Positions 2,710 through 62,586 are shown, counted from the first letter of the stretch. The stretch is 64,000 nt of DNA from a virus (IMGVR_UViG_3300033142_000627:13280-77279), one strand, 5' to 3'. Notes: generated by a model not told the origin, from the letters alone. Numbers and translations are program-made.

Positions 2710-2719
2710 GATATTCTCC

Positions 2720-3685: not shown

Positions 3686-3712
3686 AATTTCTCCAAATTT
3701 TTAACCATTGTA

Positions 3713-3874
3713 CTACTTGTCGTTGGTAATGTCAATATCTTTGAAGTGAAACATATCTTTATACCACTCTTTCCAAGAACAATATACATATTTGCCACAT
3801 TCGTATAACATCACCACAGCAGTAGCGTAGGCGATAACCAACAGAACTACCACAGTGAACATAGTAATAGACAT
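3713..3874 (-). CDS. Small membrane protein (53 aa, one TM helix)
   Basis: Hand-translated ORF MSITMFTVVVLLVIAYATAVV.... Its start overlaps the upstream stop by TAATG. Confidence 0.4.
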   Translation of the reverse strand: MSITMFTVVVLLVIAYATAVVMLYECGKYVYCSWKEWYKDMFHFKDIDITNDK

Positions 3875-4257: not shown

Positions 4258-4445
4258 TACTTCAAAGGTTCCGTTTTGTGATAATCTACATGACTCTCAT
4301 AATACCAGATATGTTCCAGAGGATAATTTCTTGTTCGGCCACTGTCAAATATAACGACAAGTGTTGGACCTTCAAGAGCATATCCACTGACATTCTCTAA
4401 TATCATTTTGCAAAGATTATCTTTTGGACTTAGTATTAACTTCAT
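4257..4445 (-). CDS. Hypothetical protein (62 aa)
   Basis: Start-stop overlap with the neighbouring gene. No motif. Confidence 0.35.
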   Translation of the reverse strand: MKLILSPKDNLCKMILENVSGYALEGPTLVVIFDSGRTRNYPLEHIWYYESHVDYHKTEPLK

Positions 4446-4448
4446 AAT

Positions 4449-4658
4449 TTAATCCTTAAAAGGTTTAACTTCTAAACCAACAATTTCGTATGTTCCTGGC
4501 AAAGCGTCAAAGTAATGATGAAATTTTAAACCAAGAACTTCCCACCTTTCACAAAGAGGTTCGATTATATCTCCGACTTCCGGAATTTTATCGTCATAGA
4601 TATTTCTTCCGTGGTCTATATAATTTTCATCAATGAAATAGTGGTAGTTTCTGTTCAT
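4449..4658 (-). CDS. Hypothetical protein (69 aa)
   Basis: Packed ORF. No motif. Confidence 0.4.
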   Translation of the reverse strand: MNRNYHYFIDENYIDHGRNIYDDKIPEVGDIIEPLCERWEVLGLKFHHYFDALPGTYEIVGLEVKPFKD

Positions 4659-4909
4659 TACAGTTCGACAGTGTTACTTGGGTTCTGATAAGAAGCTTTC
4701 AACTTATGATACATTGCACGACCACACATTGGGTCTAGTTCACAGGACTTGCCTGGTTTTACCTTGATGTATCTGTCCATATCAGGAGACTCTCCTGGAA
4801 TCCTCATAAACTCAGGTGGATTCCAAGGCATGAATAGTTTCTCTGATGCGTCTGCATTGAAAAGTTCTTTTGTTGCCTTGCGTAAGGCTTTTGCTTTTTT
4901 TCCATTCAT
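4658..4909 (-). CDS. Hypothetical protein (83 aa)
   Basis: ATGA-type overlap with the downstream ORF. Confidence 0.4.
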   Translation of the reverse strand: MNGKKAKALRKATKELFNADASEKLFMPWNPPEFMRIPGESPDMDRYIKVKPGKSCELDPMCGRAMYHKLKASYQNPSNTVEL

Positions 4910-4921
4910 AGATAGTTTACC

Positions 4922-5215
4922 TTATTCTGATGCAGGGAAGATTGTTTCGTAAAGAGTCTCAAGGTCTTCATTCTGACCAAAAGTAACATCTTTGTTCTGC
5001 TTGTGATAGATACGAGCAATCTTGTTAATCATTGCTTTTGTAATACCATTAGACTTATAACCAAGTGCGATATCTTCAACGATAGTCTTAATCTGTTCTT
5101 TCTGGCCGTCGATATGGGTTAAGGCGACACTAATCTCCTTAACTGCGCCCATAATCTCCTTGCGAGATTTGTCGTCTGATGGTAATACGATTGATGTTGG
5201 TACTGTTGTTGCCAT
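4922..5215 (-). CDS. Hypothetical protein (97 aa)
   Basis: Packed ORF. No motif. Confidence 0.45.
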   Translation of the reverse strand: MATTVPTSIVLPSDDKSRKEIMGAVKEISVALTHIDGQKEQIKTIVEDIALGYKSNGITKAMINKIARIYHKQNKDVTFGQNEDLETLYETIFPASE

Positions 5216-5279
5216 GGTTGTTCTCCATAATATAGTTCAAGTGTCCATTATAGGACACCAAGGTTTACCTGTCAAGACA

Positions 5280-5561
5280 TTAGTGAAATGTCTCTGAGAT
5301 TTTAGTTATTTCGAATGTTTCAAAGTTATCGCCTGGATTCCAATAATCATTTAACTCGTTTATAGTAAGTGATAGTGTATTTGGTATACCTTCTATATCT
5401 TTCTTCACCCAAGCAAATGGTATAACATTAACTTTATCTAATGAAGCATCTTTCCATACTTCAAGAAATTCGCTGCCTTCTTTTATATACACACCTGTTT
5501 TTATAGGGATTTCTCCCTCTTTGTATGTTATAACAGGTATATGGGATAGGTCAAAGATCAA
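5280..5561 (-). CDS. Hypothetical protein (93 aa)
   Basis: Packed ORF. No motif. Confidence 0.45.
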   Translation of the reverse strand: MIFDLSHIPVITYKEGEIPIKTGVYIKEGSEFLEVWKDASLDKVNVIPFAWVKKDIEGIPNTLSLTINELNDYWNPGDNFETFEITKISETFH

Positions 5562-5917
5562 CTTAGTAGAATCTCTGATGAACCTGTCTTGATGCCGCCA
5601 TGATTAGGCGTCAAGATTTTACCTTCTTCTTTGCCAAACTTGTCTTCCATCATCTTGATCATGCCATCTGTAGGTTTGCCAGCGGTCACAACAAGTCGTT
5701 TGTTAATAGCAAGCACCTGTTCAAAGTCGCCTAACGCGAGAATTGGTGATAGAGACATAACCTTTTCTCTATTCGATGGCATACCATTAGCGGCGTTGAG
5801 GGATACATCTTCGTGTACCGAAACGCAATGTCTAACTGCGTAGACCTCATCTGTGTCTTCTACCAATTCAGCAAGGTACTCTTCGCCTGAAATTAGTTTG
5901 ATATCAATAATATCCAT
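5558..5917 (-). CDS. Hypothetical protein (119 aa)
   Basis: Overlaps the downstream ORF by 4 nt. Confidence 0.45.
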   Translation of the reverse strand: MDIIDIKLISGEEYLAELVEDTDEVYAVRHCVSVHEDVSLNAANGMPSNREKVMSLSPILALGDFEQVLAINKRLVVTAGKPTDGMIKMMEDKFGKEEGKILTPNHGGIKTGSSEILLS

Positions 5918-6255
5918 TATTTCTCCTGTTTTAGTTTTTCAAAACCTTCATCAATTAAGATTTGGGTCAAAGTGGTATCGTCAAGTATTACTTCTCCAAT
6001 CCAGCGACCATATTTGCCGGTCTTGTGGGAAATAACAATGATTCGTTTGTTTAGTATTAGTTCTGAGACTCTATCTTTTGCCAAGAGTCCGTGGGTTCTT
6101 TCTTCTTCTGATTTAGGACGGAAGATTTCTGATGTGTCGATTCCGGCCAATCTAAATTTGACATCTACCGAGACTGTGAATCCTAAATCTACCGATGCGT
6201 AGAATGTGTCGCCGTCAACAACTCTGTAAACGTCAGCTTTATATTTGTATTCCAT
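5917..6255 (-). CDS. Staphylococcal-nuclease (SNase/thermonuclease)-like protein
   Basis: VVDGDTFY...FRLAGIDTSE and GRWIGEV resemble the SNc motifs DGDT and R..GIDxPE. Confidence 0.55.
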   Translation of the reverse strand: MEYKYKADVYRVVDGDTFYASVDLGFTVSVDVKFRLAGIDTSEIFRPKSEEERTHGLLAKDRVSELILNKRIIVISHKTGKYGRWIGEVILDDTTLTQILIDEGFEKLKQEK

Positions 6256-37621: not shown

Positions 37622-37695
37622 CCATTATACAGGTATCATTGGGAGAGTCAAGAGTTTACGTAAGTGGTTGATTTTGCATAGTATTTCTATGCAAA
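37622..37695 (-). promoter_or_regulatory. PeSL-like cassette 10 (TTGACT-16-TATAAT plus a 9-bp stem-loop TTTGCATAG/CTATGCAAA)
   Basis: -10 at 37624-37629, -35 at 37646-37651, hairpin at 37673-37695 that contains the stop codon of the upstream gene. Confidence 0.6.
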
Positions 37696-38487
37696 CAAGT
37701 CTTCCAGTGAACCTTCTTTTGTCTGATTTATGTTCTTGAGGTTGTATTTTGCGTCTTCAAACGTGAACGGCGGTTGGTCAATCTGAATCTTAGGTCGTTC
37801 TGTCTTGTCGAACCATGCTAGATCCTTCTCTTTAGGATAGTTCAATCCCCAAGTCATAGTAGAACCACGTTTCATCAGCTTCTTCGCCTTCTTATTCAGA
37901 GGCCAAATATATCTGAACATATAACCCTCAATGAACTTGATGTTTTTGGACTTCATAAAGGGTCTGGTCATCCAGAACAACTTCTCTTTGCCTTCAAAGA
38001 TAGCGTTCTCTTTGAGTAATCCCTTTGTGCTTCTTGGATGCAACTTCTCGCCATTCTCCATCATATAGACTTGAGTGAGATATTTTTCACCAAAGTAGGC
38101 ATTAGAGGCCTGATAGACATAACCTACCTTGCCCATGATTCCATCCGCCATGGTGTATAGGAATAACTTCTCTGGATATTCTTTCTTCAACCACTTGATG
38201 GTCTGAGAGACCATCTGCGATTCACTATTGCGCGGCATATCATCATCCATGCACATCTTGCCGATTTCAAAATAAGATTCTGTGCCCAATCCGGGAAACA
38301 TCTTATTGATAGTCTGTCGTGGTTGAGTTCCCCATCCTAAGGTAAGGACACCAACAAGTTCATCTTCAAGATAGAAACCAAGAAAATGTTTTGTGATTGA
38401 GGGGAATACAGGAGAATAGTGGTACTTCTGCACAAACTCCATGGCCTTCCATTTAGGAAGGTCACGAATTAAGAAGTTATACTTCAC
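37687..38487 (-). CDS. Hypothetical protein (266 aa)
   Basis: Long ORF. No confident motif. Confidence 0.5.
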   Translation of the reverse strand: MKYNFLIRDLPKWKAMEFVQKYHYSPVFPSITKHFLGFYLEDELVGVLTLGWGTQPRQTINKMFPGLGTESYFEIGKMCMDDDMPRNSESQMVSQTIKWLKKEYPEKLFLYTMADGIMGKVGYVYQASNAYFGEKYLTQVYMMENGEKLHPRSTKGLLKENAIFEGKEKLFWMTRPFMKSKNIKFIEGYMFRYIWPLNKKAKKLMKRGSTMTWGLNYPKEKDLAWFDKTERPKIQIDQPPFTFEDAKYNLKNINQTKEGSLEDLFA

Positions 38488-38768
38488 TCTTTATTCGCGA
38501 ACTCTTCGTATGCTTTGATGAAACGTGGGTCATTTCCGTCTGCCATTTCATATGAAATGATGTTATCATTCAACATCGAACGGAATCCATCTGCGACCAA
38601 GTCATACGCGACTGTTACATCTGGGTTTGGTTTTCTGTCTGTGCCTTCTTTCTTCTCAGGCAGCAAGTCAGAGTTTAGTGTACAGAACATTTCACGTTCA
38701 TCGCCGTTCTTCTTAACGAATACGGCACGCACTGGTCCTTCGACCAACATCTCTTTCAATGATTTCAT
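38484..38768 (-). CDS. Hypothetical protein (94 aa)
   Basis: Packed ORF. Confidence 0.45.
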   Translation of the reverse strand: MKSLKEMLVEGPVRAVFVKKNGDEREMFCTLNSDLLPEKKEGTDRKPNPDVTVAYDLVADGFRSMLNDNIISYEMADGNDPRFIKAYEEFANKE

Positions 38769-47894: not shown

Positions 47895-48959
47895 CTAAAC
47901 CTTTCTCCACTGATTAAATTTAGATAATCCCATTAAACCACTGAAAGCATTAGAGATTAAATATTCTGTTATTTTTTCTGGCGACCAATGATGATTCAAT
48001 ACAATATCATTGATATCTTCTCCAGTCTTAAATTTCTTGTTCCATAGTACTACTTTATGGCCGGATTGTAAAGACTTTTTCACTTTATCTACGATTGCCG
48101 TGTTTCTGGCGTCATTATCATACACCATGATGGCATCAGGGAACAAATCCATATACGACTCCAGATTGGAACCAGTGGCAGCGATGGCATTGTTCACGAA
48201 TAGAGAGTTGAGTGGTCCTTCGAGAAGGAGGATTGGTTTGGATTCGTCCACGGTGTCTAATCCGTAGATTTTAGGCATCTCATCATCAATTTTGATAGTG
48301 ATATACTTTGCTTTTGATTTAGGATTGAATGAACGACCTTGCATTGCGAACATCTTACCTTCCTTATCAAAGAACGGTATGACCAGTCTTGGTGTGTCGT
48401 ACTTTGTTGATTCAAAGGAACCACGTTTACAGAAGTTTGCGTAATCTTTGAACTTGTTTGTGTAGTATAGTCTATCGAGATATGGTTCAAGGCCTCTTTC
48501 ACGACAATATATTTTTGCTGGGTGATTATCATCAAGTCCAGATACTTTACGAACAAAGTTGTCTACCAGTAGATGATTGTATGTCTTATCAGATGTGAAG
48601 TCTAGGGCATGAGACACAAATGTTGGTTTCTGGTTCGCGAATACAGAATCATCGTCTTCTTTTATTGTTACTCTTTTCTTTGGAGCTCCGAATGACTCCT
48701 TGACGTATTCATTATATAGTGTATGGTCAATCTTCTTTAGGAAGGCACCAAACGGTAGAGATTCATTACATCTATAACAACCAGAGAACACCTGTCCTTT
48801 ATATATTTGGAAGTTGCCTCTAGTTACGTCAAGTTTATCCTTAGAGTCCCCACATATAGGGCATCGAAATGCCCATACGTCTTTCTTGACCTTATGGAAC
48901 TTCTCCAGTTTATGCGAAATCTTGTGTATATACTGGGTGTCTAGGAAAATGTCGCTCAT
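47895..48959 (-). CDS. 61: DNA primase gp61
   Basis: N-terminal zinc ribbon FRCPICGDSKDK. TOPRIM LLEGPLNSLFV...AIAATGS. About 354 aa, as in T4 gp61. Confidence 0.9.
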   Translation of the reverse strand: MSDIFLDTQYIHKISHKLEKFHKVKKDVWAFRCPICGDSKDKLDVTRGNFQIYKGQVFSGCYRCNESLPFGAFLKKIDHTLYNEYVKESFGAPKKRVTIKEDDDSVFANQKPTFVSHALDFTSDKTYNHLLVDNFVRKVSGLDDNHPAKIYCRERGLEPYLDRLYYTNKFKDYANFCKRGSFESTKYDTPRLVIPFFDKEGKMFAMQGRSFNPKSKAKYITIKIDDEMPKIYGLDTVDESKPILLLEGPLNSLFVNNAIAATGSNLESYMDLFPDAIMVYDNDARNTAIVDKVKKSLQSGHKVVLWNKKFKTGEDINDIVLNHHWSPEKITEYLISNAFSGLMGLSKFNQWRKV

Positions 48960-48988: not shown

Positions 48989-49192
48989 TTAGTTATGTTT
49001 GGAGTAATTGCTTAATCGCGCTCCATCTTGAAACCCAGAGGATTTAAAATGAAGATGTTCTATATATTTTGTGTGGCCACATTTGTTACACTTAACTACA
49101 TGGTGGGACTCAGTTTTGATAATGTTTCCACACTCACAAATAACAGTGTTAGTTATAACACCCTTATCAACACCAATAGACTTTAATATCAT
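48989..49192 (-). CDS. Small zinc-ribbon protein (start revised to MILKSIG)
   Basis: CECG...CNKCGH motif. The listed start would overlap the plus-strand gene by 44 nt. Confidence 0.4.
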   Translation of the reverse strand: MILKSIGVDKGVITNTVICECGNIIKTESHHVVKCNKCGHTKYIEHLHFKSSGFQDGARLSNYSKHN

Positions 49193-49589
49193 GTTTAACT
49201 CCGATAATTTTGAAAAACCATTAAACAGTAACACATATCTTATATATGCCGCGAAGAACTATCACAATAAGTTTTGTAACGGCCTTGATGAATTCACACA
49301 GGATATCAAAACTCTATCTTCAATCAAAAGATCGTTGAGAAAGTATTCTAAAACTGGTGACATTAAGTTACAATTGACACTTAATCACATCATTACGTTC
49401 AGGAACCTCTTTGGTTCAATACAAGCTGGACGTATATTATTCTATTATTGTGACACTTTTACATATCCGGCGCTCAAGACACTGCTTACTTATCTTGAAT
49501 GCTGTCCTGCGGATATTCCAGAGGTAGATATAGCTAACATCAAGTATGATGATCATTTGATAGACATAATTCGGACTTACAATAAATAA
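49191..49589 (+). CDS. Hypothetical protein (132 aa), first gene of the plus-strand operon
   Basis: ATG at 49191 (MFNSDNFEKPL). Opposite strand to its neighbours. Confidence 0.45.
   Translation: MFNSDNFEKPLNSNTYLIYAAKNYHNKFCNGLDEFTQDIKTLSSIKRSLRKYSKTGDIKLQLTLNHIITFRNLFGSIQAGRILFYYCDTFTYPALKTLLTYLECCPADIPEVDIANIKYDDHLIDIIRTYNK
49582..49588 (+). promoter_or_regulatory. Late-promoter-like ATAAATA core
   Basis: caATAAATAataac sits 40 nt upstream of the ATG at 49628. Confidence 0.3.
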
Positions 49590-49627
49590 TAACATTATCA
49601 AACACTTTAGTCAAGAGAATATCTAAA

Positions 49628-50146
49628 ATGGGTCTACTTCAATCACTCGCAGCATATAAAATCATAAAAGCTCTTGCCACGCCGTTTCCTAAATGGCCTG
49701 CATACAAGCTTGGTTTGATTGACGACAAAGGACGTACACTCAGAGAACCAAAGACCAAAGAAGAGAAAGATTCTCTATCTCTATTCGACAGGGTCATCAA
49801 AAACGTAAAGAAACTCATCATGAGAGCTCCTATGGGTTCATTTGCTGTTGGTTCACTCATTGTTGCACTAAAGATTCTCAAAGAAGATGCCGGGCATGAT
49901 GTTACTGATATTGTACTTGAATACCTAGATGATAATGGTATTGTTTTACAACTGAATGAGGATGATAACTCAAAAGAACCTTTCTGTCAAGGCAAATACA
50001 TAGATAATCTATCAGAGAAGATGTTTATTGTCAAGGAAGAGTTATTCCCTTGTGATATCATCATGGGATGCCCAGTTTACGAGGTTACAGATGTGGTTGG
50101 TAAAGACGTATTATTCGTCACAAGAGATAATGTAAGAATGGTATGA
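49628..50146 (+). CDS. Hypothetical protein (172 aa)
   Basis: Plus-strand operon ORF. Confidence 0.5.
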   Translation: MGLLQSLAAYKIIKALATPFPKWPAYKLGLIDDKGRTLREPKTKEEKDSLSLFDRVIKNVKKLIMRAPMGSFAVGSLIVALKILKEDAGHDVTDIVLEYLDDNGIVLQLNEDDNSKEPFCQGKYIDNLSEKMFIVKEELFPCDIIMGCPVYEVTDVVGKDVLFVTRDNVRMV

Positions 50147-50167
50147 CAAGATCCGTACCATAATTTG

Positions 50168-50174
50168 ATAAATA
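50168..50174 (+). promoter_or_regulatory. Late-promoter-like ATAAATA core
   Basis: tgATAAATAataat sits 27 nt upstream of the ATG at 50201. Confidence 0.3.
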
Positions 50175-50200
50175 ATAATAAGATTTAATAGGAATAGTAA

Positions 50201-50791
50201 ATGAAGTCGTTTAAAGATTTTGGCAATCACCAAGAATTCTCTCTGGAGTTGAATAACATTATTGAATTAATGGAATTTGAGAAGATGGGAGTAGATACCC
50301 TAACAGAGGAAACACTGGACGAATTTAAGATGCCTGATATAACCGGCGCATTGAAGACCGCTGGGTTCCATGTAAAGAAGGGACGAGGCCTAATGCAAAT
50401 CATTGCTGCTTCTGGTACCCATATGGCGAAGATTCTATACCATGCTGTGAAGGCAGCGAAAGGTGATGAAGCTTCCGTCGCAGAATTAAAGAAATTACTA
50501 GCAAAGAAAATAACCAAAGAGGACATCATTGATGTTCTTTTAAAGATTGACCAATTAACATTACACGCATTGACTGGTCCTATTCATGCGATTGAGGCGA
50601 TTACAGGTTGGCATATTGCAGCTGCGATTAAGAATGTAAGAAAGGTCAGTGATGATATCAAGCAGAAGGTTGTTAATGTCATTGATACCTTAAAGACACT
50701 CGCAAAGAAGGTTGATAAGGCCATCGCGGCAAAGGTGACCTCTTTGACAACCGATATTTCAAACACATTCAAAGATTATACGGTAGCATAA
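50201..50791 (+). CDS. Candidate head internal protein with a capsid-targeting-like N-terminus (196 aa)
   Basis: N-terminus MKSFKDFGNHQEF resembles the T4 internal-protein leader MKTYQEFIAE. Ala/Lys-rich helical body. Confidence 0.4.
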   Translation: MKSFKDFGNHQEFSLELNNIIELMEFEKMGVDTLTEETLDEFKMPDITGALKTAGFHVKKGRGLMQIIAASGTHMAKILYHAVKAAKGDEASVAELKKLLAKKITKEDIIDVLLKIDQLTLHALTGPIHAIEAITGWHIAAAIKNVRKVSDDIKQKVVNVIDTLKTLAKKVDKAIAAKVTSLTTDISNTFKDYTVA

Positions 50792-51282
50792 TGAGATCAT
50801 TTAAGAAATGGGTAGATGATAATGTCATCGGCAATATTGTTTATTATATCGACAAGGGCGATAATGTAGATAAGATTGTTAAAAATATTAATAGTCATAC
50901 TGGTACCAATATGAAGAAGATGTTGAAAAAGTCTTTCTCAAGGATGAAACCAGAAGAGGTTTCAAAAACAACATATGATAAACTAAAACGTATCGTATCA
51001 TTGGTAGAAGAAGCATCAACAACCGTCGCAGGAGTCTCAGGAGGACCCGGTGGTTCGTTTGAACCTCACGGCATGGCATTCGGTAAGCCTTACTTTGATG
51101 TATGTCAGGACACCTTCTCAGCATGTTACAAAGGTGGCAAAGAACATCGTAAACATTGGTTAAAGAAACTAGGCAATACGGAATCATCACATCTGATTCG
51201 TAGATGGACGGCAAAGAATCCCGGCAAACAGTTTCTATTGAAGTTGAAAGACCAGAATCAATGGGTTAACGGTAGAGCATAA
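50791..51282 (+). CDS. Candidate internal protein (163 aa) with a similar MRSFKKW N-terminus
   Basis: Same M-[KR]-S-F-K N-terminal pattern as the preceding gene. ATGA coupling. Confidence 0.4.
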   Translation: MRSFKKWVDDNVIGNIVYYIDKGDNVDKIVKNINSHTGTNMKKMLKKSFSRMKPEEVSKTTYDKLKRIVSLVEEASTTVAGVSGGPGGSFEPHGMAFGKPYFDVCQDTFSACYKGGKEHRKHWLKKLGNTESSHLIRRWTAKNPGKQFLLKLKDQNQWVNGRA

Positions 51283-51605
51283 TGATACTAAAACCTAAAA
51301 CGACCATTTTACTATCAGAGATAGGCATTAGCGCTCTGATGATTGCAAGTTGTTACATATTCCTTGTGGATTACATTAGTCTCAGAGAAGACAACGAAAT
51401 AGCCATGGAATATATTGAAAATTTCAGAACTGACCACGGTTCAATGAAAATAGAACTTCAAAATAAAATTAAGATAGTTGAACACAGCTCAACGAAATTA
51501 AAAAATAGTAAATTACTATACGATGGAAGAATAAGTCGAATCAAGGAACTAGAAGAAAGAATAAAATCACTTGAGAAGACGGCACTTTCTAATGACGGAA
51601 CTTAA
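51282..51605 (+). CDS. Membrane-anchored coiled-coil protein (107 aa)
   Basis: N-terminal TM helix then a heptad-like region. Confidence 0.45.
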   Translation: MILKPKTTILLSEIGISALMIASCYIFLVDYISLREDNEIAMEYIENFRTDHGSMKIELQNKIKIVEHSSTKLKNSKLLYDGRISRIKELEERIKSLEKTALSNDGT

Positions 51606-52170
51606 TAAAAACGATAAAGCGAACGACAACAATCAACAAAATATTTTCAATGACTTGCAAAAGCAAATTAAAGTATTAGAAGATGAACTCGTTGCGGTCT
51701 CAAAAGGAGATAGCGTATCAACCAAAGATGTTGTGAAAATAAATCGTCTTGTTAAATCTATATGGTCTCTGGCCAGTATCTTTCTCGCCTTGGTGTCCTC
51801 AACATCCTATATATACATAGAATCAAAAAGAGCACTAGATGCGATTGAAGAAAATAACACAGCAATCGTTGAAATAAGAAAAGAAGACAAAAAGGTATTA
51901 GAACTTGTCAAAAAAGCTTTAGAAAAGAACGACGAAGAATTATCAAAAATAATCAATATCAAAGTTGATGATAGATTATCAGATTTGGTAAAGATAACAA
52001 AAGAGGCCGCCGACGATGCGAAGGATTCCAGAGAGTTGGTTGAGGAATCTGCTCAGGCAATGGCAGGAATGAATGACTCTGTGAGAGCTAACTATAAAGA
52101 ACTTCTTAGATATAAGAAAGAGGTTACTGTTAGACTACAAAGAATCGAAAAGAAGTTAAAAGCTAAATAA
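51589..52170 (+). CDS. Coiled-coil protein with a central TM segment (start revised to MTELNK)
   Basis: Heptad repeats. Hydrophobic stretch IWSLASIFLALVSSTSYIYI. Confidence 0.45.
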   Translation, partial: LMTELNKNDKANDNNQQNIFNDLQKQIKVLEDELVAVSKGDSVSTKDVVKINRLVKSIWSLASIFLALVSSTSYIYIESKRALDAIEENNTAIVEIRKEDKKVLELVKKALEKNDEELSKIINIKVDDRLSDLVKITKEAADDAKDSRELVEESAQAMAGMNDSVRANYKELLRYKKEVTVRLQRIEKKLKAK

Positions 52171-52173
52171 ATA
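52167..52173 (+). promoter_or_regulatory. Late-promoter-like ATAAATA core
   Basis: aaATAAATAcac sits 34 nt upstream of the ATG at 52207. Confidence 0.3.
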
Positions 52174-52206
52174 CACAAAATAAGAATCGACAAATGAGAA
52201 TCGAGA

Positions 52207-52662
52207 ATGAATTTATTAAAAGCAATAACTTTATGTTTTGTGATAAGTTTAGCTGGCAAACCATCAATAACACAGGCCGAGTTTTCCATACAACAGAACG
52301 AACTGGTAGGACCAGTACCTACTAAAGATACAAATTCATTCATCACTCAATATGAACTATATAACATATTCAGTTTTAATGAGACAGAAAGTTGGAACGG
52401 AGGTCGTATTGTGGTTGTAATGTTCGACATACACTCTAGGGAACACAAGAATTTTGTAAAAGATACCATTCTGTATCCTTGGAAGTCCTATATGAAGTAC
52501 GCTGAACGTAGATACAAGTCAGCTGATACTATTATTGTTAAGAACTATAGCGAGATGATAGAAGCAATCACATACAACTTGGGTGCTATTGGTTACTTGC
52601 CAAAAGGTAGTGTGTTGTACAATAGCAAACATAACGGAATTGTAGAGGTGAAGATTAGATAA
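52207..52662 (+). CDS. Secreted protein (151 aa, signal peptide)
   Basis: Signal peptide MNLLKAITLCFVISLAGKPSITQA. Confidence 0.5.
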   Translation: MNLLKAITLCFVISLAGKPSITQAEFSIQQNELVGPVPTKDTNSFITQYELYNIFSFNETESWNGGRIVVVMFDIHSREHKNFVKDTILYPWKSYMKYAERRYKSADTIIVKNYSEMIEAITYNLGAIGYLPKGSVLYNSKHNGIVEVKIR

Positions 52663-53363
52663 TGCCCGATTCATACATATATAAAATGGCGGATAAACAC
52701 AACGTAACTGTGGACAGAACAGAAGAGTTGTGGTTCAAAGCAAGAAAACTTGCTGCAGAGGCAGGTCACAAAGACGAATATGATTACATTACAGGAATAT
52801 TTAAGAAAATGATAGGCGAAGAGATGAACGAAGATTACTGGTCAGACTTTCCAGAAAAGATTGACGATAAGAAAGTACAACTATTCTTGGGTCGTATGCA
52901 ACCTATCCATAAGGGACACGATGCAATCATTAAGATGATGAAGAATCCAGTCGTTGTTCTTGTAAAAGGAAAGGAGTCTTCAAAGGACAAGTCAAGGAAT
53001 CCACTGGACGCGAAGTATCAGACCAAGTTGATACACAAACTCAACCCTAGAGCGATGGTCATTGTGGCGAAAACTGGTTACATTCCAGACACTATCTCAT
53101 TACTACGTGACCAAGGACTTGATGTTGATTTAGTATTAGCAGGCAACGACCGCATTGGTTCATATAAGAAACAGATTGATTCAGCGAATAAGAAACTTGA
53201 TGACTGGCAACAAATGGAAGTTAAGTATAAGGAAACGCCTAGAATTACATCAGCTACAGATGTTCGTAACGCTATTAAGAGTGATGACAGAGAGACATTT
53301 GAAAAGCTTGTCCCTAAGAAACTTCATTCTGAATGGGACAAACTACGCAAACTGGTTAAGTAA
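52662..53363 (+). CDS. NadM-type nicotinamide-mononucleotide adenylyltransferase-like protein (HxGH cytidylyltransferase fold)
   Basis: LFLGRMQPIHKGHDAII matches archaeal-type NMNAT GRFQPFHKGH. C-terminal ITSATDVRNAI matches the ISSTxIR motif. Confidence 0.6.
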   Translation: MPDSYIYKMADKHNVTVDRTEELWFKARKLAAEAGHKDEYDYITGIFKKMIGEEMNEDYWSDFPEKIDDKKVQLFLGRMQPIHKGHDAIIKMMKNPVVVLVKGKESSKDKSRNPLDAKYQTKLIHKLNPRAMVIVAKTGYIPDTISLLRDQGLDVDLVLAGNDRIGSYKKQIDSANKKLDDWQQMEVKYKETPRITSATDVRNAIKSDDRETFEKLVPKKLHSEWDKLRKLVK

Positions 53364-54416
53364 TTAGAACTTAATATTGTTATCGAAAGAAACTAAAGGT
53401 TCTACTTGTAGAAAGTCCATAAGGTTCTTGTAACTTTTCTTTACCCAAGATATAATCTTCATTATAATGGACTTAATGAATGATTTTGCCTTGTTGAATA
53501 TATCTGCGATTACGCCTTCTGTTAATGCATACTCTGGAATATCATCGATATCTTCTTGGAGTTTATCCACAATAAGACCTACAACAGACCAGTAACGGTA
53601 GTTCCCTGTCTTCTGTTTCTTTCCATCAATAACTTTCTTCTCTGAACCAGACTTGAAGCGTACAGACACCTTCATCTTCTTTGCGATAGATGAAACGTAT
53701 GCCTTATCATTAACAGGTACGTGATGAATCTTTGAACCATCCCATGTTACAACAAGGAAACTTGAACAAGCACCATCGTTGCCACCAAACTTAACATCTC
53801 CTGACATTGCTTCATACGCAAATGCATCTCTGAACGATTGGTTGGTTGAGAAAACCTTGGTCAACTCTCTCATCAGGTCTTTATGTACAGCATCGGCCTG
53901 TTTAACAAGTTCGTCTTTGCCGCTTTTTATTGCTGCGCGTAGATTCCCTTTTGTTACTCCTGCTGGAGACAACTGGTCAAATCCTTTTCTCAAGGTATCA
54001 GAAACTTTCTTATCGACACCCTTTAATTGATTCGCAGCGGCGTAGAATGTTGCGCGGGCCTCATTACGACCACCTGACATTAATTGTGCTGCTTGTCCCG
54101 TCTTGAGAGATATCTTATCCGAGCCGATGACGATATCAGTCTTAGGAGTCTTTGTGCCGCCTGGAACCTTACCTTCTGGCCAGTATGTTGACCACTCTTT
54201 AGTAACAGGCATAGTGGAGGCGCCAAGAGAAGAGGCTTTGCCTGACTCGCCTTTACTCTTCAACTCAGCAACAATCTTTTCAACGTTCTCTTGTGTGATA
54301 CGTTTATCTGTTATATCACTAGGAATCTCTTGACCATTCCATACCGCGATAATGGCATTCTCCATCTGTATACCAGGAGATGCTGCTTCGTTAATATATT
54401 CTTTGAAACCTTTCAT
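53364..54416 (-). CDS. Hypothetical protein (350 aa, Lys/Gly-rich)
   Basis: Long ORF with no recognised motif. Confidence 0.5.
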   Translation of the reverse strand: MKGFKEYINEAASPGIQMENAIIAVWNGQEIPSDITDKRITQENVEKIVAELKSKGESGKASSLGASTMPVTKEWSTYWPEGKVPGGTKTPKTDIVIGSDKISLKTGQAAQLMSGGRNEARATFYAAANQLKGVDKKVSDTLRKGFDQLSPAGVTKGNLRAAIKSGKDELVKQADAVHKDLMRELTKVFSTNQSFRDAFAYEAMSGDVKFGGNDGACSSFLVVTWDGSKIHHVPVNDKAYVSSIAKKMKVSVRFKSGSEKKVIDGKKQKTGNYRYWSVVGLIVDKLQEDIDDIPEYALTEGVIADIFNKAKSFIKSIIMKIISWVKKSYKNLMDFLQVEPLVSFDNNIKF

Positions 54417-55941: not shown

Positions 55942-56023
55942 CTCCTATAAATGAATAAAGGCATCGGGGTGGTGGCAACCCCTGAGTACCTTCCTAATAT
56001 AGTTATTTATGTTATCTTACCGT

Positions 56024-56275
56024 TTACCAACTCGGTCTACACTCATACAACGCTCTTCTAAGTTCTTCTTTGAAGTGTTGTAGTTTATATTCTTCTACTT
56101 CTGTACGGTATTCTGGGTCAATAATCTCATAGTTGTATACCTGTTCGTCATAATAGTCAATTTTTCTATCACATAATTCTCGGCTCAGTGGCGCGTTACG
56201 AACCAGTTCCTTCATCTCTCCAGCAGAGGATGTGTATGAGGTAAATAATAAGATGAATATTGCAATATATTTCAT
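56024..56275 (-). CDS. Small secreted protein (83 aa)
   Basis: Signal peptide MKYIAIFILLFTSYTSSA. Confidence 0.45.
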   Translation of the reverse strand: MKYIAIFILLFTSYTSSAGEMKELVRNAPLSRELCDRKIDYYDEQVYNYEIIDPEYRTEVEEYKLQHFKEELRRALYECRPSW

Positions 56276-56277
56276 GA

Positions 56278-56652
56278 TTAATGGTCGCCTTGTAGTCGTT
56301 CTATCCTTTTATTTAGTGTTTGTATTTGTAGTTTATACAATTCTACCTCACCAATGGTATCTGCACTACCTAAAAGGGTGTTCAACTTTGAGATTTGTGA
56401 AGTGAGGTCTTCTATATATGTGGTACGAATAGTCACCGCCTCTTTTTCGAACCTCTCGGTGATGCGTGTTTCCATTGCGGACAGGTCTTTATGAGTCACC
56501 AACACAGAATCAACAGCTGTAATCATTTTACTACCAAAACCTAAAATGGTAAAGAGAGCTCCTATCACCGCAGCAGTTGTTAGTATAGTTTTTACTGGGT
56601 TTTCTTTGACCTTGGCCAAGAACCCTTCTTTTTCTTGTGTCTTATTAGGCAT
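56278..56652 (-). CDS. Membrane-anchored coiled-coil protein (124 aa)
   Basis: TM helix then heptad repeats. Confidence 0.45.
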   Translation of the reverse strand: MPNKTQEKEGFLAKVKENPVKTILTTAAVIGALFTILGFGSKMITAVDSVLVTHKDLSAMETRITERFEKEAVTIRTTYIEDLTSQISKLNTLLGSADTIGEVELYKLQIQTLNKRIERLQGDH

Positions 56653-56666
56653 AAGACTATTTATGT

Positions 56667-56936
56667 TTATCTAATGAAATCCCAGTAATCCATAGGTTCT
56701 ATACCTCTTGGCATATCATCAATCCAATCATCAAACGCCTGCATTTCCTTTTTAGATGCATGGTCATAAACAATATCCGTAGCTTCTCCCCACTCACCAT
56801 CCTCAAGAGCAACAGATAATTCATGTGAGTCATTTGTTTTCTTAATCTTTTTGATTAGATTAAAAATAATCTTTGGTATATCTTTTTTATCAGCGCGCTT
56901 AACGGCCTCGTTAAGGAATTCTTTTGTTGTTTTCAT
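56667..56936 (-). CDS. Hypothetical acidic protein (89 aa)
   Basis: Packed ORF. Confidence 0.45.
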   Translation of the reverse strand: MKTTKEFLNEAVKRADKKDIPKIIFNLIKKIKKTNDSHELSVALEDGEWGEATDIVYDHASKKEMQAFDDWIDDMPRGIEPMDYWDFIR

Positions 56937-56940
56937 TTAT

Positions 56941-58023
56941 CTACCTTATCATTTGTATGTCGTCTGTATGTATATTATCCAAAGACCATACTTCAAGGTC
57001 CTTTTTTAATCTATCCTCAGAACGAAGTTTTTCCCAACGCTTTACAGATTTCTTTTTCCATATCGATATCATCTCTTCGCTAGATTTACTGATATTGTTA
57101 CAGTAATAGTAATTCTTCTTGGTTGTTATATTAGACTTCGTTTTTATCATATTAGAGAATTCATGGTATTTATCTATATCATGATGTTTTAATGAATTCT
57201 TTATTGTCCTGATAAGGCCATTAAATCTCTTTGTCTTTACTGAACTTGAGTTGACCGTTATGTTGACAACATGATTACCTTCATTCTCGGATTTGATGAT
57301 AATTGTTAACTTTTTGATAACATCATCAGAAGGGTACATCATCAGGTTTGAATCAGTTCTTACCTTAGACCTCTTTATAATGGGTTTAAGTCCATCGTAT
57401 TGAGAAGACTGTTTAATGGAACCATATAGACTGGTCGTTTCGAAGTATTGTATATCAGTGTCATACTTGTTGTTGAAACGGTCTCTTATGTCTGTAGATG
57501 CCGCTATTAGTGCAAGTAGTTTGCCGCCGAGATAGTTAAAACCAAACGGTTGAACCGGCACGATTACGATGCCATTATAGAAGGTACGGTTCAATTCTTC
57601 TGGTTTTATGACATAATCCAACATCGTGTTACGAGGTTTCATATTGATTGTCGGGGAAGACATCTTAATAAAACCTAATAACTTTTTCGTGTTGTTCTCC
57701 CACACCTTAACACACAATGACCGACCCGGAGTGGGCCCGACGACAAACGACGAAACGTATTGTAACTGATTATAATACTCTCTGTTCTCTGGTGTATACT
57801 CTAATCTAATGTCCATATCCATTGGAGACATATCATAATCATTAAAATATATATCAGAATACATGTGATTACCAAAAATGTCATAGGATTCCATATCTAA
57901 TAACTTGATTCCTTTTCTAATTCTTTGGTATTGTTCTATATCAGTAATATCAGCGTAAGCATCCATTAATATATCATAACACCTAAGTGTGTTACGTTCG
58001 GACAATATTAGTTTATCTACCAT
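56941..58023 (-). CDS. Unknown-function protein, paralogue A of a tandem pair (360 aa)
   Basis: About 60% identical by eye to ORF 58344-59570 over the whole length. Confidence 0.55.
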   Translation of the reverse strand: MVDKLILSERNTLRCYDILMDAYADITDIEQYQRIRKGIKLLDMESYDIFGNHMYSDIYFNDYDMSPMDMDIRLEYTPENREYYNQLQYVSSFVVGPTPGRSLCVKVWENNTKKLLGFIKMSSPTINMKPRNTMLDYVIKPEELNRTFYNGIVIVPVQPFGFNYLGGKLLALIAASTDIRDRFNNKYDTDIQYFETTSLYGSIKQSSQYDGLKPIIKRSKVRTDSNLMMYPSDDVIKKLTIIIKSENEGNHVVNITVNSSSVKTKRFNGLIRTIKNSLKHHDIDKYHEFSNMIKTKSNITTKKNYYYCNNISKSSEEMISIWKKKSVKRWEKLRSEDRLKKDLEVWSLDNIHTDDIQMIR

Positions 58024-58024
58024 A

Positions 58025-58339
58025 TTAGTAATCAGTGTGTTCTAGGTACCGTTCTTTATGTACTCTTTCGCTAATGATAGTTCCGTCGGTAACTCTTGTT
58101 ATAACAACTTTCTGTTCTTCCTCGACCCATTTTGTATTCAATTGGTAGTATTTCAGTTTGGCCTGTAGTTCTTTCAAGATTTGGTTATAGGTCTCATCTT
58201 CCATATAGTCAGGATAACTTTCAGCAATACGAATCAGGTAGTCGGTAACCTCTTGAAATTCATCATTCTCTTGTGATGTGTATTCCGATATCTGTTTGCA
58301 CATCTCATACACATCATCTCTGTTCATTATATCTTTCAT
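58025..58339 (-). CDS. Hypothetical acidic protein (104 aa) between the paralogues
   Basis: Packed ORF. Confidence 0.45.
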   Translation of the reverse strand: MKDIMNRDDVYEMCKQISEYTSQENDEFQEVTDYLIRIAESYPDYMEDETYNQILKELQAKLKYYQLNTKWVEEEQKVVITRVTDGTIISERVHKERYLEHTDY

Positions 58340-58343
58340 AGTA

Positions 58344-59570
58344 TTACCTTATCATCTGAATTTTGTCACCAAGAACCGTATCTAGATCCCAAATCTCAAG
58401 TTCTGTACGAATTCTATCATCGGCTGCAAGATTGTCATATCGTCTTTGTGCCTTGCGTTTCCACCAAACAACCATTTCTTCAACGCTCTTATTAATGTTG
58501 TTGCAGTAATAGTAATTCTTTTTGGTAGTAATCTCCTTCTTCACAGCAAGGAACTCTTTCAAGTGGTCGTGTTTCTCCATATCATGTACCTTTAGAGAAG
58601 CATATAGACGCGAGAACATACCGTTCATTCGTTTCAACTTGACAGAACCACTATTTGCCTCTACGGCGTGTTGACCATTATTCTCGCTCTTGAAGATTAA
58701 CGCCATCTTTCCGAGAACTTCATCGGATGGGTACATCATAAGATTTGAATCTGTTTGTGCCTTACAACGGCGAATCATAGGTTTCAGACCGTCATACTGT
58801 GAAGACTGTTTGATTGATCCATATAAGCTGGTTGTTTCAAATGTCTGAATGTCAGTACCATATTTCTTATTGAACATATCACGTACATCAGTTGAAGCAG
58901 CGATTAACGCCATCAGTTTACCACCAAGGGCATTATAACCGAATGGTTGTACAGGTACAAGAATGATACCGTTATAGAACGTGCGATTCAATTCTTCGGG
59001 TTCAACGATTCTATCCATCATCACATTACGAGGTTTCATATTGAGAGTAGGTGAACCCAACTTCATAAATCCAAGTGTCTTGCCTGTGTTCGCCTCAACA
59101 GCGCGTAGGTGCAAGGTACGACCCGGTGACGGTACAATCGCCATAGAGGACACTACTTGTATCTGTTCATAGAAATCTCTTGAGGAGAGTTCTTCCACGC
59201 GGATTTCCATATCATCTGGACGCATATCATAGTCATTAAACAGAATATCGTCATACCATTCCGTACCATCGATAGACTGTGAAGAACCGGTCTTCATCAA
59301 CATCTCAAGTTTACGGAATCTCTGATATGATTCAATGTCGTGAAAGTTTGAGTAGTAGTCAATAAGAAGTTTATAACAGGCAATTGCCTTATCCTTAGGG
59401 AGAATCAACATCTCGCCTTCTTTTCTATCAGATTCGAATAACGCCTGTGGTTTTTCTGGTTGGTCCGGTTCTTTGTCCGGACGTTTGAACTTTCCTACTG
59501 TACTCTCTTTCTCAACGGCAAGGTCTTCGCCGAATAAATCTTGTGAACTCATAATATTTCCCATAATCAA
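58344..59570 (-). CDS. Unknown-function protein, paralogue B of the tandem pair (408 aa)
   Basis: Shares the blocks NRTFYNGI..VPVQPFG.N.LGGKL.ALIAAST and TKKNYYYCNNI with paralogue A. Extra 48-aa N-terminus. Confidence 0.55.
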   Translation of the reverse strand: MIMGNIMSSQDLFGEDLAVEKESTVGKFKRPDKEPDQPEKPQALFESDRKEGEMLILPKDKAIACYKLLIDYYSNFHDIESYQRFRKLEMLMKTGSSQSIDGTEWYDDILFNDYDMRPDDMEIRVEELSSRDFYEQIQVVSSMAIVPSPGRTLHLRAVEANTGKTLGFMKLGSPTLNMKPRNVMMDRIVEPEELNRTFYNGIILVPVQPFGYNALGGKLMALIAASTDVRDMFNKKYGTDIQTFETTSLYGSIKQSSQYDGLKPMIRRCKAQTDSNLMMYPSDEVLGKMALIFKSENNGQHAVEANSGSVKLKRMNGMFSRLYASLKVHDMEKHDHLKEFLAVKKEITTKKNYYYCNNINKSVEEMVVWWKRKAQRRYDNLAADDRIRTELEIWDLDTVLGDKIQMIR

Positions 59571-59603
59571 TTTATACCATTATATAGTAAGCGAACGTAT
59601 TTA

Positions 59604-59858
59604 TCAAGACATTCTTCGTTCAAACTCTGGAAAAGATGTTTTTCCGAAACCAGTAAACTTGTAATCTCTATGAAATGCGATCTTTGCTCTTTTGGTCATA
59701 GGTATAACAAGTTTCTCCATATGAAACGCCGGATTGAATCCTGGTTCCTCGGATGTGAACTCCTGTTCGGCCTCATTAGGTCGTAACAAATAAAATGCCA
59801 CGACCGGAACCGTGTGGAGTTGATTAATCTGTTTTTTAAACATATCATATAGTGTCAT
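59604..59858 (-). CDS. Hypothetical protein (84 aa)
   Basis: Packed ORF. Confidence 0.4.
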   Translation of the reverse strand: MTLYDMFKKQINQLHTVPVVAFYLLRPNEAEQEFTSEEPGFNPAFHMEKLVIPMTKRAKIAFHRDYKFTGFGKTSFPEFERRMS

Positions 59859-59866
59859 AATATCTC

Positions 59867-61300
59867 CTAAACTATAAAGTCATCAAAAGGATTTCCGTCC
59901 TTCTTATTATCACCGAACATCAATTCCTGTCCAGCACCAAATGTTGGTTTATCCGCTATGGTTTTCCCATCAGTAGTTGAGGCACCCATCATCGTACCGG
60001 CAGTATCATCAAGGTCATAGAATCGCATCTGTTTGAAATCAACACCACACATAAACTTATTGGTGCTGGATATATCATAGAAACGGTTCTTCAACTGTTT
60101 GAACATCACCTTGCCCTGTTCGCGTAGCTCTTCTGTAGAAATCATACCAAAGAAAGTATCAACAGTATGTAATAGACCGGCTGATTCTGATACATCAGAC
60201 ATTTCCATATCAGAGGCATTTAGTCCACCACGATTAACCTGTGTAGCACTAACAATAGGACAATTATTCTCAATTGCGAATCCACGAAGTTCTTCTGCGA
60301 TACTCTTAACAAGTGTGTACGAGTTTGCGCCTTTTGCTGCACGACTTGAAGAACAAATATTAAGGTAATCGATAAAGATAATATCAGGCACAAAGTTCTG
60401 TTTGGTCTTTAGTTCTCTAACAAGATGTCTAAAGTGACCAACATGTGCCGATGTGGTAGGATATTCCTTAATCATCAATCGACCAGCGCACTTCTCTTTT
60501 ACATCTTCGACCTGTTTGAGATACTTGTCTCTATCGATGCCGTGTAGTTTATTAAGGTCGACCTCTAAGAGATTGGCGTCGATACGTTCACCAATTCTTT
60601 CTTCGGCCAACTCTAATGAGATGTATAGAACATTCTTGCCCTGTAAATACAACTGACTACCGATATGAATCATAATGGCAGACTTACCAGAACCGGCTCC
60701 GCCCATGAAAACATTCAATGTCTTGTCAACAAAACCACCACGGGTTACCTTATCAAGATAGTGTAGACCAGTGGCCAATCTATCTTCTTTCAGGTGTAAC
60801 AAATCGTAACGCGCATCAGCATCATTGATATAGTCGTGACCTACAGAACTATCAAACGAAACACTCAAGGCATCTTGTAGCAGTTCAGGTATGGCACCTT
60901 TGTCCATATCTTTCTTCTCACCATTGATAATGGCGATAGCAGTTTCAACAGACCTGTGAACGGCACGTTCAGAACAGAATTTCTCCGTTTCGTCCCTTAA
61001 CCATTCTGAATTAGGTTTTTCTTCCGTAATGATTCTATACGAATCGAGTCTTGTTACTATTTCTTTGTATTCATCTTCGGTAATATTTTTACGGTCACCT
61101 ACCTGTACAATGATAGACTCTATTGTAGGTACATCATTATACTTTTCAAAGAAGCCTTTGTATTCTTCAAAGATAACCCTATATTGATCATCAGAGTAAT
61201 ATTCATCCTTTAGATACGGTAGAACATCTCTTACATAGGCGCTATCAACGAATAGATTCTTGAATAGTACATCTTCAAAATCTATATCAATCAATAACAC
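59867..61300 (-). CDS. 41: Replicative DNA helicase gp41 (DnaB family)
   Basis: Walker A GGAGSGKS. The N-terminus aligns with T4 gp41. GTG start preceded by an AAGGAGA SD. Confidence 0.9.
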   Translation of the reverse strand: MLLIDIDFEDVLFKNLFVDSAYVRDVLPYLKDEYYSDDQYRVIFEEYKGFFEKYNDVPTIESIIVQVGDRKNITEDEYKEIVTRLDSYRIITEEKPNSEWLRDETEKFCSERAVHRSVETAIAIINGEKKDMDKGAIPELLQDALSVSFDSSVGHDYINDADARYDLLHLKEDRLATGLHYLDKVTRGGFVDKTLNVFMGGAGSGKSAIMIHIGSQLYLQGKNVLYISLELAEERIGERIDANLLEVDLNKLHGIDRDKYLKQVEDVKEKCAGRLMIKEYPTTSAHVGHFRHLVRELKTKQNFVPDIIFIDYLNICSSSRAAKGANSYTLVKSIAEELRGFAIENNCPIVSATQVNRGGLNASDMEMSDVSESAGLLHTVDTFFGMISTEELREQGKVMFKQLKNRFYDISSTNKFMCGVDFKQMRFYDLDDTAGTMMGASTTDGKTIADKPTFGAGQELMFGDNKKDGNPFDDFIV

Positions 61301-61556
61301 TCTCCTTGGTCATAGATTCTAACTCAGAGATTATTCCGTTTGTGAAATTTGTTACAATCTCGCTGACCTCTTCTTTAATATTTTCGGGGATTTCAATCGC
61401 AATAGATTTGTCCCTCTCTACTAGTCCGTATTCGGCATTAACCGCGTACTGGCCAGTTTCGTCAGGTTCCTCGGAGAAGGACACATTAGTAATAACAACA
61501 TCAAAGTCATCACCAAATGCAATAACAACTTGTTTCATTTTATCACTCATCGTCAT
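61287..61556 (-). CDS. Small acidic protein in the gene-40-equivalent position
   Basis: Lies between uvsX and 41 as T4 gene 40 does. No motif; start uncertain. Confidence 0.35.
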   Translation of the reverse strand: MTMSDKMKQVVIAFGDDFDVVITNVSFSEEPDETGQYAVNAEYGLVERDKSIAIEIPENIKEEVSEIVTNFTNGIISELESMTKESVID

Positions 61557-62586
61557 CCTCCTGCAACATTTTGATTTGTGCAACCTTGTATTTTTCTTCT
61601 ATCGCCTTGGTGAAGTTTGTCTTCTCTAAGATAGGCATCCAGAAATCGGGAGTGTTCGTGTCCTTTGCGCGCCAGTTTTTGTCCTCTTGAACAACTCCAT
61701 CAGCATCAGGAATAATTCTTGTATACCAACCAACTTTTGGTTTCTCCACAAATCCCATTTCGGTAGCAATATCTAATAGACCAGACCATTTAGAGATGCC
61801 GCCTTCATATGTAACGGTGATAGGCAGTTTTGATTTCTCTTTAACGAAACGTGACTTCTCGATATTGATTGTAAAGTTATAACCAACAATTTCTTTGCCT
61901 TCTTTCTGTTGAGACTTGCCTACCATCAATACAGTATTGGCAGAGTACATTGCACCAGTACCACCAGACATCACCTGTTTACTGAACATCTCAATCGTTT
62001 GATATGAGTGGTTCACAGCAACCATTGGGATATCAAGCTTGGTTAGATATGGAGTCACCATTCTGAATAGAGACTTCAATTGTTTTGCGCGGGTCATATC
62101 GGCAACGGACTTTCCTTCAAGAGCATCATCAACTTCTTTCTTAGATGCAAGGTTACCGATAGAGTCAATGAAGATGAATACATTATCACTCTTCTTGAGA
62201 CTATCAAGTTGTTTCATAATGTCCTGTTTCAGTTCTTCGATGTTCATAATAGGAACATGGATAACTCGGTCAGAGTCGATACCGAATGAATCAAAATAGT
62301 CCTTAGATGCACCAAACTCTGAATCATAGAATAGAATAACAGAGTCTTTCACTTCATCAAGATAGGCCTTTGCCATGATGAGCGCGTATGCAGTTTTAAA
62401 GTGACGGGAAGGTCCTACAACGAATGTTAAGCCAGATGACAGACCTCCGTCAAGGGAACCACTAAGGGCAACATTCAATAACGGTACAGATGTTCGTACC
62501 ACGGTAGTTTTCATAAATGACGAATGAGTTAGCAACTCGGATTCTTTGATGGTACTATTTTTGATCAGTTGTTCCAATATACTCAT
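61543..62586 (-). CDS. uvsX: UvsX recombinase (RecA-like)
   Basis: PLLNVALSGSLDGGLSSGL, FYDSEFG, FIDSIGNLASKKE and DMTRAKQLKSLFR are near-identical to T4 UvsX blocks. Confidence 0.95.
   Translation of the reverse strand: MSILEQLIKNSTIKESELLTHSSFMKTTVVRTSVPLLNVALSGSLDGGLSSGLTFVVGPSRHFKTAYALIMAKAYLDEVKDSVILFYDSEFGASKDYFDSFGIDSDRVIHVPIMNIEELKQDIMKQLDSLKKSDNVFIFIDSIGNLASKKEVDDALEGKSVADMTRAKQLKSLFRMVTPYLTKLDIPMVAVNHSYQTIEMFSKQVMSGGTGAMYSANTVLMVGKSQQKEGKEIVGYNFTINIEKSRFVKEKSKLPITVTYEGGISKWSGLLDIATEMGFVEKPKVGWYTRIIPDADGVVQEDKNWRAKDTNTPDFWMPILEKTNFTKAIEEKYKVAQIKMLQEDDDE

Follow-up and report, generated by a model that had tools for sequence, protein, structure and literature searches.

Two Adjacent Genes From a Phage Branch of the DruA Family

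The 64-kb phage stretch IMGVR_UViG_3300033142_000627:13280-77279 (hereafter the window, i.e., the whole sequence analyzed) carries two neighboring genes, copy A (56941–58023) and copy B (58344–59552, with an open frame reaching 59570), which sequence comparison shows to be duplicates that diverged long ago and that belong to a phage branch of the DruA/DUF4338 family. A first-pass annotation of the same DNA had placed open reading frames (ORFs) at these positions without giving a strand; both exist and lie on the minus strand, in the gene order B, a small acidic ORF, A. The BLASTP alignment of A with B extends over 357 amino acids (aa) with 58% identity, 74% positives, 4 gaps, and an E value of 5e-154, so that their paralogy is beyond doubt, and every motif block that had been quoted in favor of full-length homology is visible in it. 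Copy A is a predicted DruA-family GNAT-fold protein of 360 aa with an isoelectric point (pI) of 9.0 and without an N-terminal extension. Copy B, predicted to be of the same kind, has 402 aa when read from the ATG at 59552, and its N-terminus is a ~50-aa acidic extension (pI 4.5), probably disordered, ahead of the conserved core (pI 8.2).

Family Membership and Predicted Fold

Both proteins scored above the gathering cutoff (GA) of the Pfam family DruA (PF14236), with 43.9 bits for A and 44.7 bits for B against a GA of 27, in a direct alignment that covers only profile positions ~27–180 of 297, i.e., the N-terminal two thirds. They also matched DruA1 of PADLOC (A, E = 4e-8; B, E = 3.5e-7) and, from end to end, PHROG 19197 (A, E = 1e-76; B, E = 1e-80), which is listed as being of “unknown function.” NCBIfam contained no match for A or B, and a search of the PDB sequences with the family profile returned nothing significant.

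The AlphaFold2 model of A, built on an alignment of 27 sequences (pLDDT 85, pTM 0.83), contains an N-terminal helical hairpin, a beta-alpha core (residues ~72–222 plus a strand at 304–309), and a helical, net-basic C-terminal domain. The fold of A and B is predicted to be that of a GNAT acyl- or aminoacyl-transferase core, a mixed beta-sheet with the beta4-alpha3-beta5 arrangement. The best Foldseek matches in the PDB were N-terminal or histone acetyltransferases, e.g., NatD and Naa80, and DUF4338 has been classed independently as a GNAT domain by the Aravind laboratory (PMC10853773). The loop after beta4 reads Q158-P-F-G161-F-N163, followed by LGGK; it is conserved and resembles motif A (Q/R-x-x-G-x-G/A), the last position being N rather than G/A. 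Given the Pfam and PHROG assignments and this predicted core with its motif-A-like loop, the earlier description of the pair as proteins of unknown function with no recognizable catalytic motif is not supported. The same annotation had raised the prospect that both would prove to be ordinary conserved T4-family proteins. Identity with Alt (an ADP-ribosyltransferase) or Dda (a superfamily 1 helicase) was rejected because there was no such match in Pfam, PHROG, or NCBIfam, but the proteins are members of a family that is widespread among marine T4-like phages and has been catalogued.

Among the BFVD structures, full-length relatives occurred in giant viruses (Faunusvirus, Yasminevirus, and Dasosvirus) in proteins of up to 1260 aa, and another structural relative was fused into a siphovirus protein of 695 aa that carries an amidoligase annotation (matches A0A3G4ZXG3, A0A5K0UAJ3, A0A3G4ZRA1, and A0A8S5SJK3). 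Two cyanophage homologues bear the labels “methylcarbamoylase mom” and “iron-binding protein”; these look as if they were transferred from a weak Mom fold match, and we did not accept them as evidence of function.

Relation to DruA of the Druantia System

At E ≤ 1e-3, an exhaustive profile search yielded 1141 sequence clusters. It revealed, beneath the tight phage family, a second tier of 360–740-aa proteins that match the phage profile at positions ~20–360 with 120–165 bits, and that also match Pfam DruA at positions 5/23–297 with 66–108 bits, as well as PADLOC DruA1. In a joint alignment, the shared blocks begin in the hairpin at the N-terminus and extend as far as the C-terminal helix: PGR, S[DP]x6R[DN], VPxQPFGxNxLGGKL, TTSLYG...SQYxG (after beta5), RGVY/KKxYY, and a basic WWKxKAxKR helix, with the VPxQPFGxNxLGGKL and TTSLYG...SQYxG blocks kept superfamily-wide. 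From the bridging second-tier proteins and the joint alignment, we conclude that the phage family is homologous to DruA over its full length.

DruA (PF14236, formerly DUF4338) is the first gene of type I Druantia, a bacterial anti-phage system. By the Pfam cutoff it is of the same family as A and B, and it has in common with them the GNAT-type core and the blocks PGR, VPxQPFGxNxLGGKL, TTSLYG..SQYxG, and WWKxKAxKR. Unlike DruA of type I Druantia, A and B are located in the replisome block of a lytic, uncultured marine T4-like phage, lack druB–E, and form an adjacent, diverged pair. Their neighbors are gp41, UvsX, and small ORFs, none of which gave a Druantia match in PADLOC, and no ORF of the 64-kb window is larger than that of the 720-aa NrdA. 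Although type I Druantia lacks a methylase domain, it has been reported to give a PacBio adenine-modification signal at CAGCTGNC (10.1101/2024.04.14.589459), and a 2026 preprint restates this signal. We infer that a bulky N6-adenine adduct of any kind would be called “m6A” by PacBio.

Age of the Duplication and Selection on the Two Copies

The context of the family was surveyed in 98 related loci, in none of which an adjacent pair of copies was found; in L086, an HTVC008M-like contig, a second copy lies at a distance of ~6 kb from the first. In a neighbor-joining tree, A branches outside the group formed by B and P0002. The 78%-identical relative L004, whose gp41 is 74% identical, has a B-type gene only, with an acidic-ORF homologue after it, and no copy A. 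This gene content, taken together with the tree, indicates that B and the acidic ORF are the older unit and that the duplication predates the split from L004.

The synonymous divergence (dS) between A and B is saturated (third-position identity, 38%), and the nonsynonymous divergence (dN) is ~0.37. Because of this saturation there is no meaningful dN/dS ratio: that of NG86 is undefined, and the LWL85 value of 0.22 is not reliable. Conservation was assessed in the alignment of 27 sequences including A and B, and all 47 columns that are invariant across it are kept in both copies. When departures were scored against the other 25 members, A departed at 2 of the 49 invariant columns and, among the 71 columns with ≥ 90% conservation, at 7; the counts for B were 0 and 3, respectively. 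The changes in A are all in beta6 and the C-terminal domain, and its two departures at invariant columns fall outside the DruA-family catalytic-type motifs, which both copies retain. These results fit an old duplicate under long-term purifying selection, with some specialization of A, and neither decay nor the diversifying selection that the first-pass annotation had suggested. Copy A is somewhat the more derived paralogue, chiefly in its C-terminal domain.

Distribution of the Family and Its Place in the Replisome Module

With tblastn, the family was detected in 31 GenBank phage records, all of them marine T4-like myoviruses at 33–38% identity: 25 were Synechococcus phages, and the others were Pelagibacter phage HTVC008M and single-cell “marine virus” contigs. 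The DruA-like gene is accessory, because gp41 is carried by far more Synechococcus phage records (377 vs 25). Uncultured viral contigs contained at least 600 matching stretches, whereas in 185,579 prokaryotic species genomes the family was found in only 14 contigs of metagenome-assembled genomes (MAGs), apparently as binned phage DNA. A megablast search of the 9.6-kb region against GenBank phages gave no match.

Across the 98 loci, the nearest recognized upstream neighbor was gp44 in 26, gp43 in 24, and gp41 in 6, and the nearest recognized downstream neighbor was gp62 in 24 and UvsX in 17. Given these neighbors (gp44/gp62, gp43/UvsX, and gp41), genes of the family are almost always found within the replisome module. 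A preprint on Phold reported DruA-like coding sequences in six Synechococcus phages, with a TM-score of 0.73 to DruA (10.1101/2025.08.05.668817), so the family and its resemblance to DruA were already known. The DruA-like proteins of marine T4-like phages (PHROG 19197) are of the same family as A and B from end to end (33–43% identity) and occupy the same site in the replisome module. However, those phages have one copy or a distant second, whereas the window has two adjacent copies, a lineage-specific acidic ORF, and a Mom gene. What is new here is that the two diverged copies are adjacent, that an acidic ORF confined to this lineage and a Mom gene occur in the same phage, and that fusions and neighborhoods provide evidence for a DNA substrate.

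A second tblastn place in HTVC008M was not located within 84–107 kb. The 352-aa gene that follows gp41 in this phage was considered as a second DruA-like copy and rejected, as it is a homologue of a window ORF at 53364–54416 (minus strand). This uncharacterized 350-aa window ORF is 51% identical to the HTVC008M protein and, judging from that match, is a conserved replisome-block gene of this phage group.

The Acidic ORF Between the Paralogues

The 104-aa acidic ORF that had been noted between the copies was confirmed at 58025–58339 on the minus strand; its pI is 4.54, with 24 D + E vs 13 K + R. It was assigned to no family in Pfam, PHROG, PADLOC, or NCBIfam, and the sole match among 5.8 billion proteins was the ORF itself. 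One homologue, of 87 aa and 45% identity (phmmer, 3.5e-20), is located directly after the single DruA-like gene of L004. On these matches, the ORF is lineage-restricted. An AlphaFold2 single-sequence model predicts, with moderate confidence (pLDDT 68), three helices and a beta-hairpin. Small acidic ORFs lie downstream of family members in 14 of the 98 loci, but they are not homologous to one another, and such an ORF is therefore not a consistent feature of the family.

Fusions, Neighbors, and the ~450-aa Partner

Among the second-tier relatives from uncultured marine sequences, three have an N-terminal ParB_N fusion (P0185 and P0189 above the GA; P0199, with 23.2 vs 26.3 bits, below it), and P0212 has a fused domain of the uracil-DNA-glycosylase (UDG) superfamily, above the GA. 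In phages, orphan DNA methyltransferases, which are anti-restriction modifiers, commonly have ParB_N at the N-terminus. The relatives with ParB_N likewise bear this module before the catalytic domain, and the idea common to both groups is that of an orphan modifier for counter-defense. Unlike those enzymes, however, the relatives have a GNAT catalytic domain and not an S-adenosylmethionine-dependent methyltransferase, and A and B themselves have no ParB_N. Because ParB_N and UDG domains both act on DNA, the fusions suggest that DNA may be the substrate of the A/B family.

The neighborhoods of related genes also included DNA-modification genes. In L023 and L024, the order is gp44, Mom (69% identical to that of the window), the DruA-like gene, a 457-aa gene, Mom, and Mom; in L029 and L012, Mom is one or two genes from the DruA-like gene. 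Directly upstream of the DruA-like gene, L064 has a DNA N6/N4 methyltransferase (142 bits), and L101, another T4-like phage, has a weak methyltransferase-like match. The L023 cluster (1304–6070), which also occurs in L024, L029, L041, and L005, lies between the clamp-loader gene 44 and endonuclease VII and consists of three Mom-family paralogues (281, 239, and 223 aa), a glycosyltransferase-like gene of ~455 aa, and the DruA-like gene. This set has the look of a cassette with which uncultured marine T4-like phages would hypermodify DNA by means of several enzymes.

A ~450-aa partner directly follows the DruA-like gene in 16 of the 75 phage loci with enough downstream sequence. It also follows a ParB_N–DruA fusion in a recombinase-bearing bacterial island, at 29–32% identity (E ~1e-51). 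Its alignment (A2) comprises L007 (7110–8453), L099 (9890–11260), and 15 other loci, and contains 53 invariant residues, including the motifs HLPE, GYxHW, and NHR. The partner repeatedly matched glycosyltransferases of the GT-B type, always below the Pfam threshold, and it had no assignment in Pfam, PHROG, PADLOC, or the PDB sequences. Its identification as DruB was rejected because PADLOC gave no match, and the partner was not found in the window. The bacterial island itself (fusion at 8001–9887 of L099/L100, partner, and serine recombinase) is located between the housekeeping genes groEL/ES, secG, and lptE.

Mom in the Window

The window has its own Mom gene at 37687–38487 on the minus strand (Pfam Mom, 180 bits), with 31% identity to Mom of phage Mu and 46% identity to the homologue of Methylophilales phage Melnitz. 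Mom of phage Mu (Pfam PF25680, PDB 8BV8) is a GNAT enzyme that uses Gly-tRNA as the donor and attaches glycine to N6 of adenine in double-stranded DNA (PMC13219725). Mom appears to be uncommon in T4-like phages. Among 211 Mom-positive records, the ten leading organism groups included no Synechococcus phage. Upstream of the window Mom is a 94-aa ORF of the WYL_2 type (Sm-like SH3; 38484–38768, minus strand).

Organization of the Locus

Copy B, the acidic ORF, and A are shown to be one tightly packed unit, with 4 nt from B to the acidic ORF and 1 nt from the acidic ORF to A, just downstream of the gp41 helicase. The gp41-type helicase gene (59867–61300) lies upstream of the pair, beyond an 84-aa ORF (59604–59858), and UvsX (61543–62586) lies upstream of the helicase. 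The gp61-type primase (47895–48959) is separated from copy A by ~8 kb of other genes, and all four of these genes are on the minus strand; the pair is thus within the replisome block between genes 41 and 61, as the first-pass annotation had it. The 84-aa ORF belongs to no family in Pfam, PHROG, PADLOC, or NCBIfam, and is 38% identical to the ORF after gp41 in the nearest relative, L004.

A candidate sigma70-like, early-type promoter (59579–59607, minus strand; TTGATA-17-TATAAT) is situated directly upstream of copy B. It is the best such match within 56000–61400 (11/12) and is a consensus match only, 26 sites having been found in this interval vs 19.8 expected by chance. For copy B, the 408-aa frame from the TTG at 59570 that had been described is real, but the start is most likely the ATG at 59552, because the database gene call P0001, a 100% match to copy B, has 402 aa and because the best promoter match ends at 59579.

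Within the otherwise minus-strand primase–helicase region, 49071–53363 is a block of plus-strand genes that includes a DUF7207 protein (49071–49589) and a cytidylyltransferase-like protein (52662–53363). In L004, a 179-aa protein with release factor domains (PCRF and RF-1; 1340–1879) lies between gp41 and the DruA-like gene, and the window has no equivalent of it at that position.

Possible Functions of the Pair

We tentatively favor the reading that A and B are orphan DNA-modifying acyl- or aminoacyl-transferases for counter-defense, with copies that differ in specificity, at somewhat short of an even chance. The first-pass annotation had already guessed at counter-defense, which is reasonable. 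In such a scheme, A and B would add an acyl or aminoacyl moiety to DNA, as Mom of phage Mu does, with acyl-CoA or an aminoacyl-tRNA as the possible donor, and the mark on replicating phage DNA would shield it from host restriction or from modification-sensing defenses. The copies might differ in target sequence or base, because the changes in A are concentrated in the C-terminal, putatively substrate-binding domain; alternatively, they might act as a heteromer, in line with the two-component enzyme that the first-pass annotation had named as another option, and the acidic ORF could be a partner or regulator. The points that support a DNA modifier are the DruA-family/GNAT identity, the conservation of the motifs, the fusions, the replisome, Mom, and methyltransferase neighbors, the Mom of the window, and the precedents of Mu Mom and of the adenine signal reported for type I Druantia.

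Several observations weigh against this reading. Pfam Mom gave no match to A or B at E ≤ 0.1, and an HHalign comparison of the family with the window's own Mom gave a probability of 0.3%, i.e., no similarity; at the sequence level, A and B have no link to Mom. Because the slots that these genes occupy in a replisome module are variable, neighborhood counts for little as evidence. Mom is present in the flanks of only 5 of the 98 loci, and the window's Mom is 19 kb from the pair. The sub-threshold glycosyltransferase likeness of the ~450-aa partner could mean sugar chemistry, and the Druantia “m6A” report is a single preprint (10.1101/2024.04.14.589459). Moreover, with Mom present, a second and a third adenine modifier need a separate rationale. 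A broader proposal, which we regard as possible but doubtful, is that DruA-family GNATs are a second class of DNA-base acyl- or aminoacyl-transferases after Mom: DruA of Druantia would write the CAGCTGNC self mark, the phage orphans would write protective marks that are sometimes elaborated by a glycosyltransferase-like partner, and the pair would give two specificities beyond Mom.

Proteins or small molecules are the usual substrates of GNATs, and A and B could instead be acetyl-CoA-dependent acetyltransferases of such targets, acting early on host or phage replication or transcription proteins in a host take-over role comparable to that of the ADP-ribosyltransferases Alt and Mod of T4. The Foldseek matches to NatD and Naa80, the Q-x-x-G loop after beta4 that resembles the motif A that binds CoA pyrophosphate, the early-type promoter candidate, and the replisome neighbors are consistent with this role. 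However, the ParB_N and UDG-superfamily fusions, the Mom-paralogue and DNA-methyltransferase neighbors, and the conserved basic C-terminal domain argue for DNA, and we consider the take-over role rather unlikely, at about one chance in a handful or slightly better. Sugar or nucleotide-sugar chemistry with the glycosyltransferase, for example N-acylation of an amino sugar for DNA or the envelope, would account for the partner that follows the gene in the phage loci and in the bacterial island and for its repeated GT-B matches. Such chemistry is improbable: the partner is absent from the window, whose phage would have lost or replaced it, and from most loci, the GNAT family is conserved without it, and its assignment is under every Pfam threshold and has no PDB sequence match.

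Phages often bear homologues of defense components as inhibitors, and the homology of A and B to a defense-system subunit would suit decoys or mimics of host DruA that interfere with a Druantia type I-like complex by poisoning or titration and need no catalysis of their own. Against this, more than 1000 sequence clusters strictly keep the enzyme-type motifs, the surroundings of A and B contain no Druantia partner genes, and the family is far commoner in phage contigs than in prokaryotic genomes (at least 600 viral stretches vs 14 MAG contigs), so we regard decoys as very improbable. We give slightly less weight still to a phage-borne defense or superinfection exclusion system directed against competing phages or mobile elements. 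The membership of DruA in a defense system and the presence of a ParB_N–DruA fusion with the partner in a small recombinase-bearing bacterial island speak for it, but A and B have no DruE-type helicase or nuclease effector beside them, and they are located in the early replication block rather than in a moron or lysogeny region.

Significance of the Phage DruA Branch

The phage branch is compact, comprises more than 1000 sequence clusters, and is free of other Druantia genes, which makes it a convenient system for learning what the GNAT of DruA does, and with the duplicated pair, nature has provided two specificities that can be compared. If DNA is modified, as in the reading that we tentatively favor, this would represent a DNA modification that is widespread, yet unrecognized, among the T4-like phages that infect cyanobacteria and SAR11-type hosts in the ocean, and it would explain the self/non-self discrimination of type I Druantia. 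If proteins are acetylated instead, marine phages would have in this family a new enzyme for host take-over.

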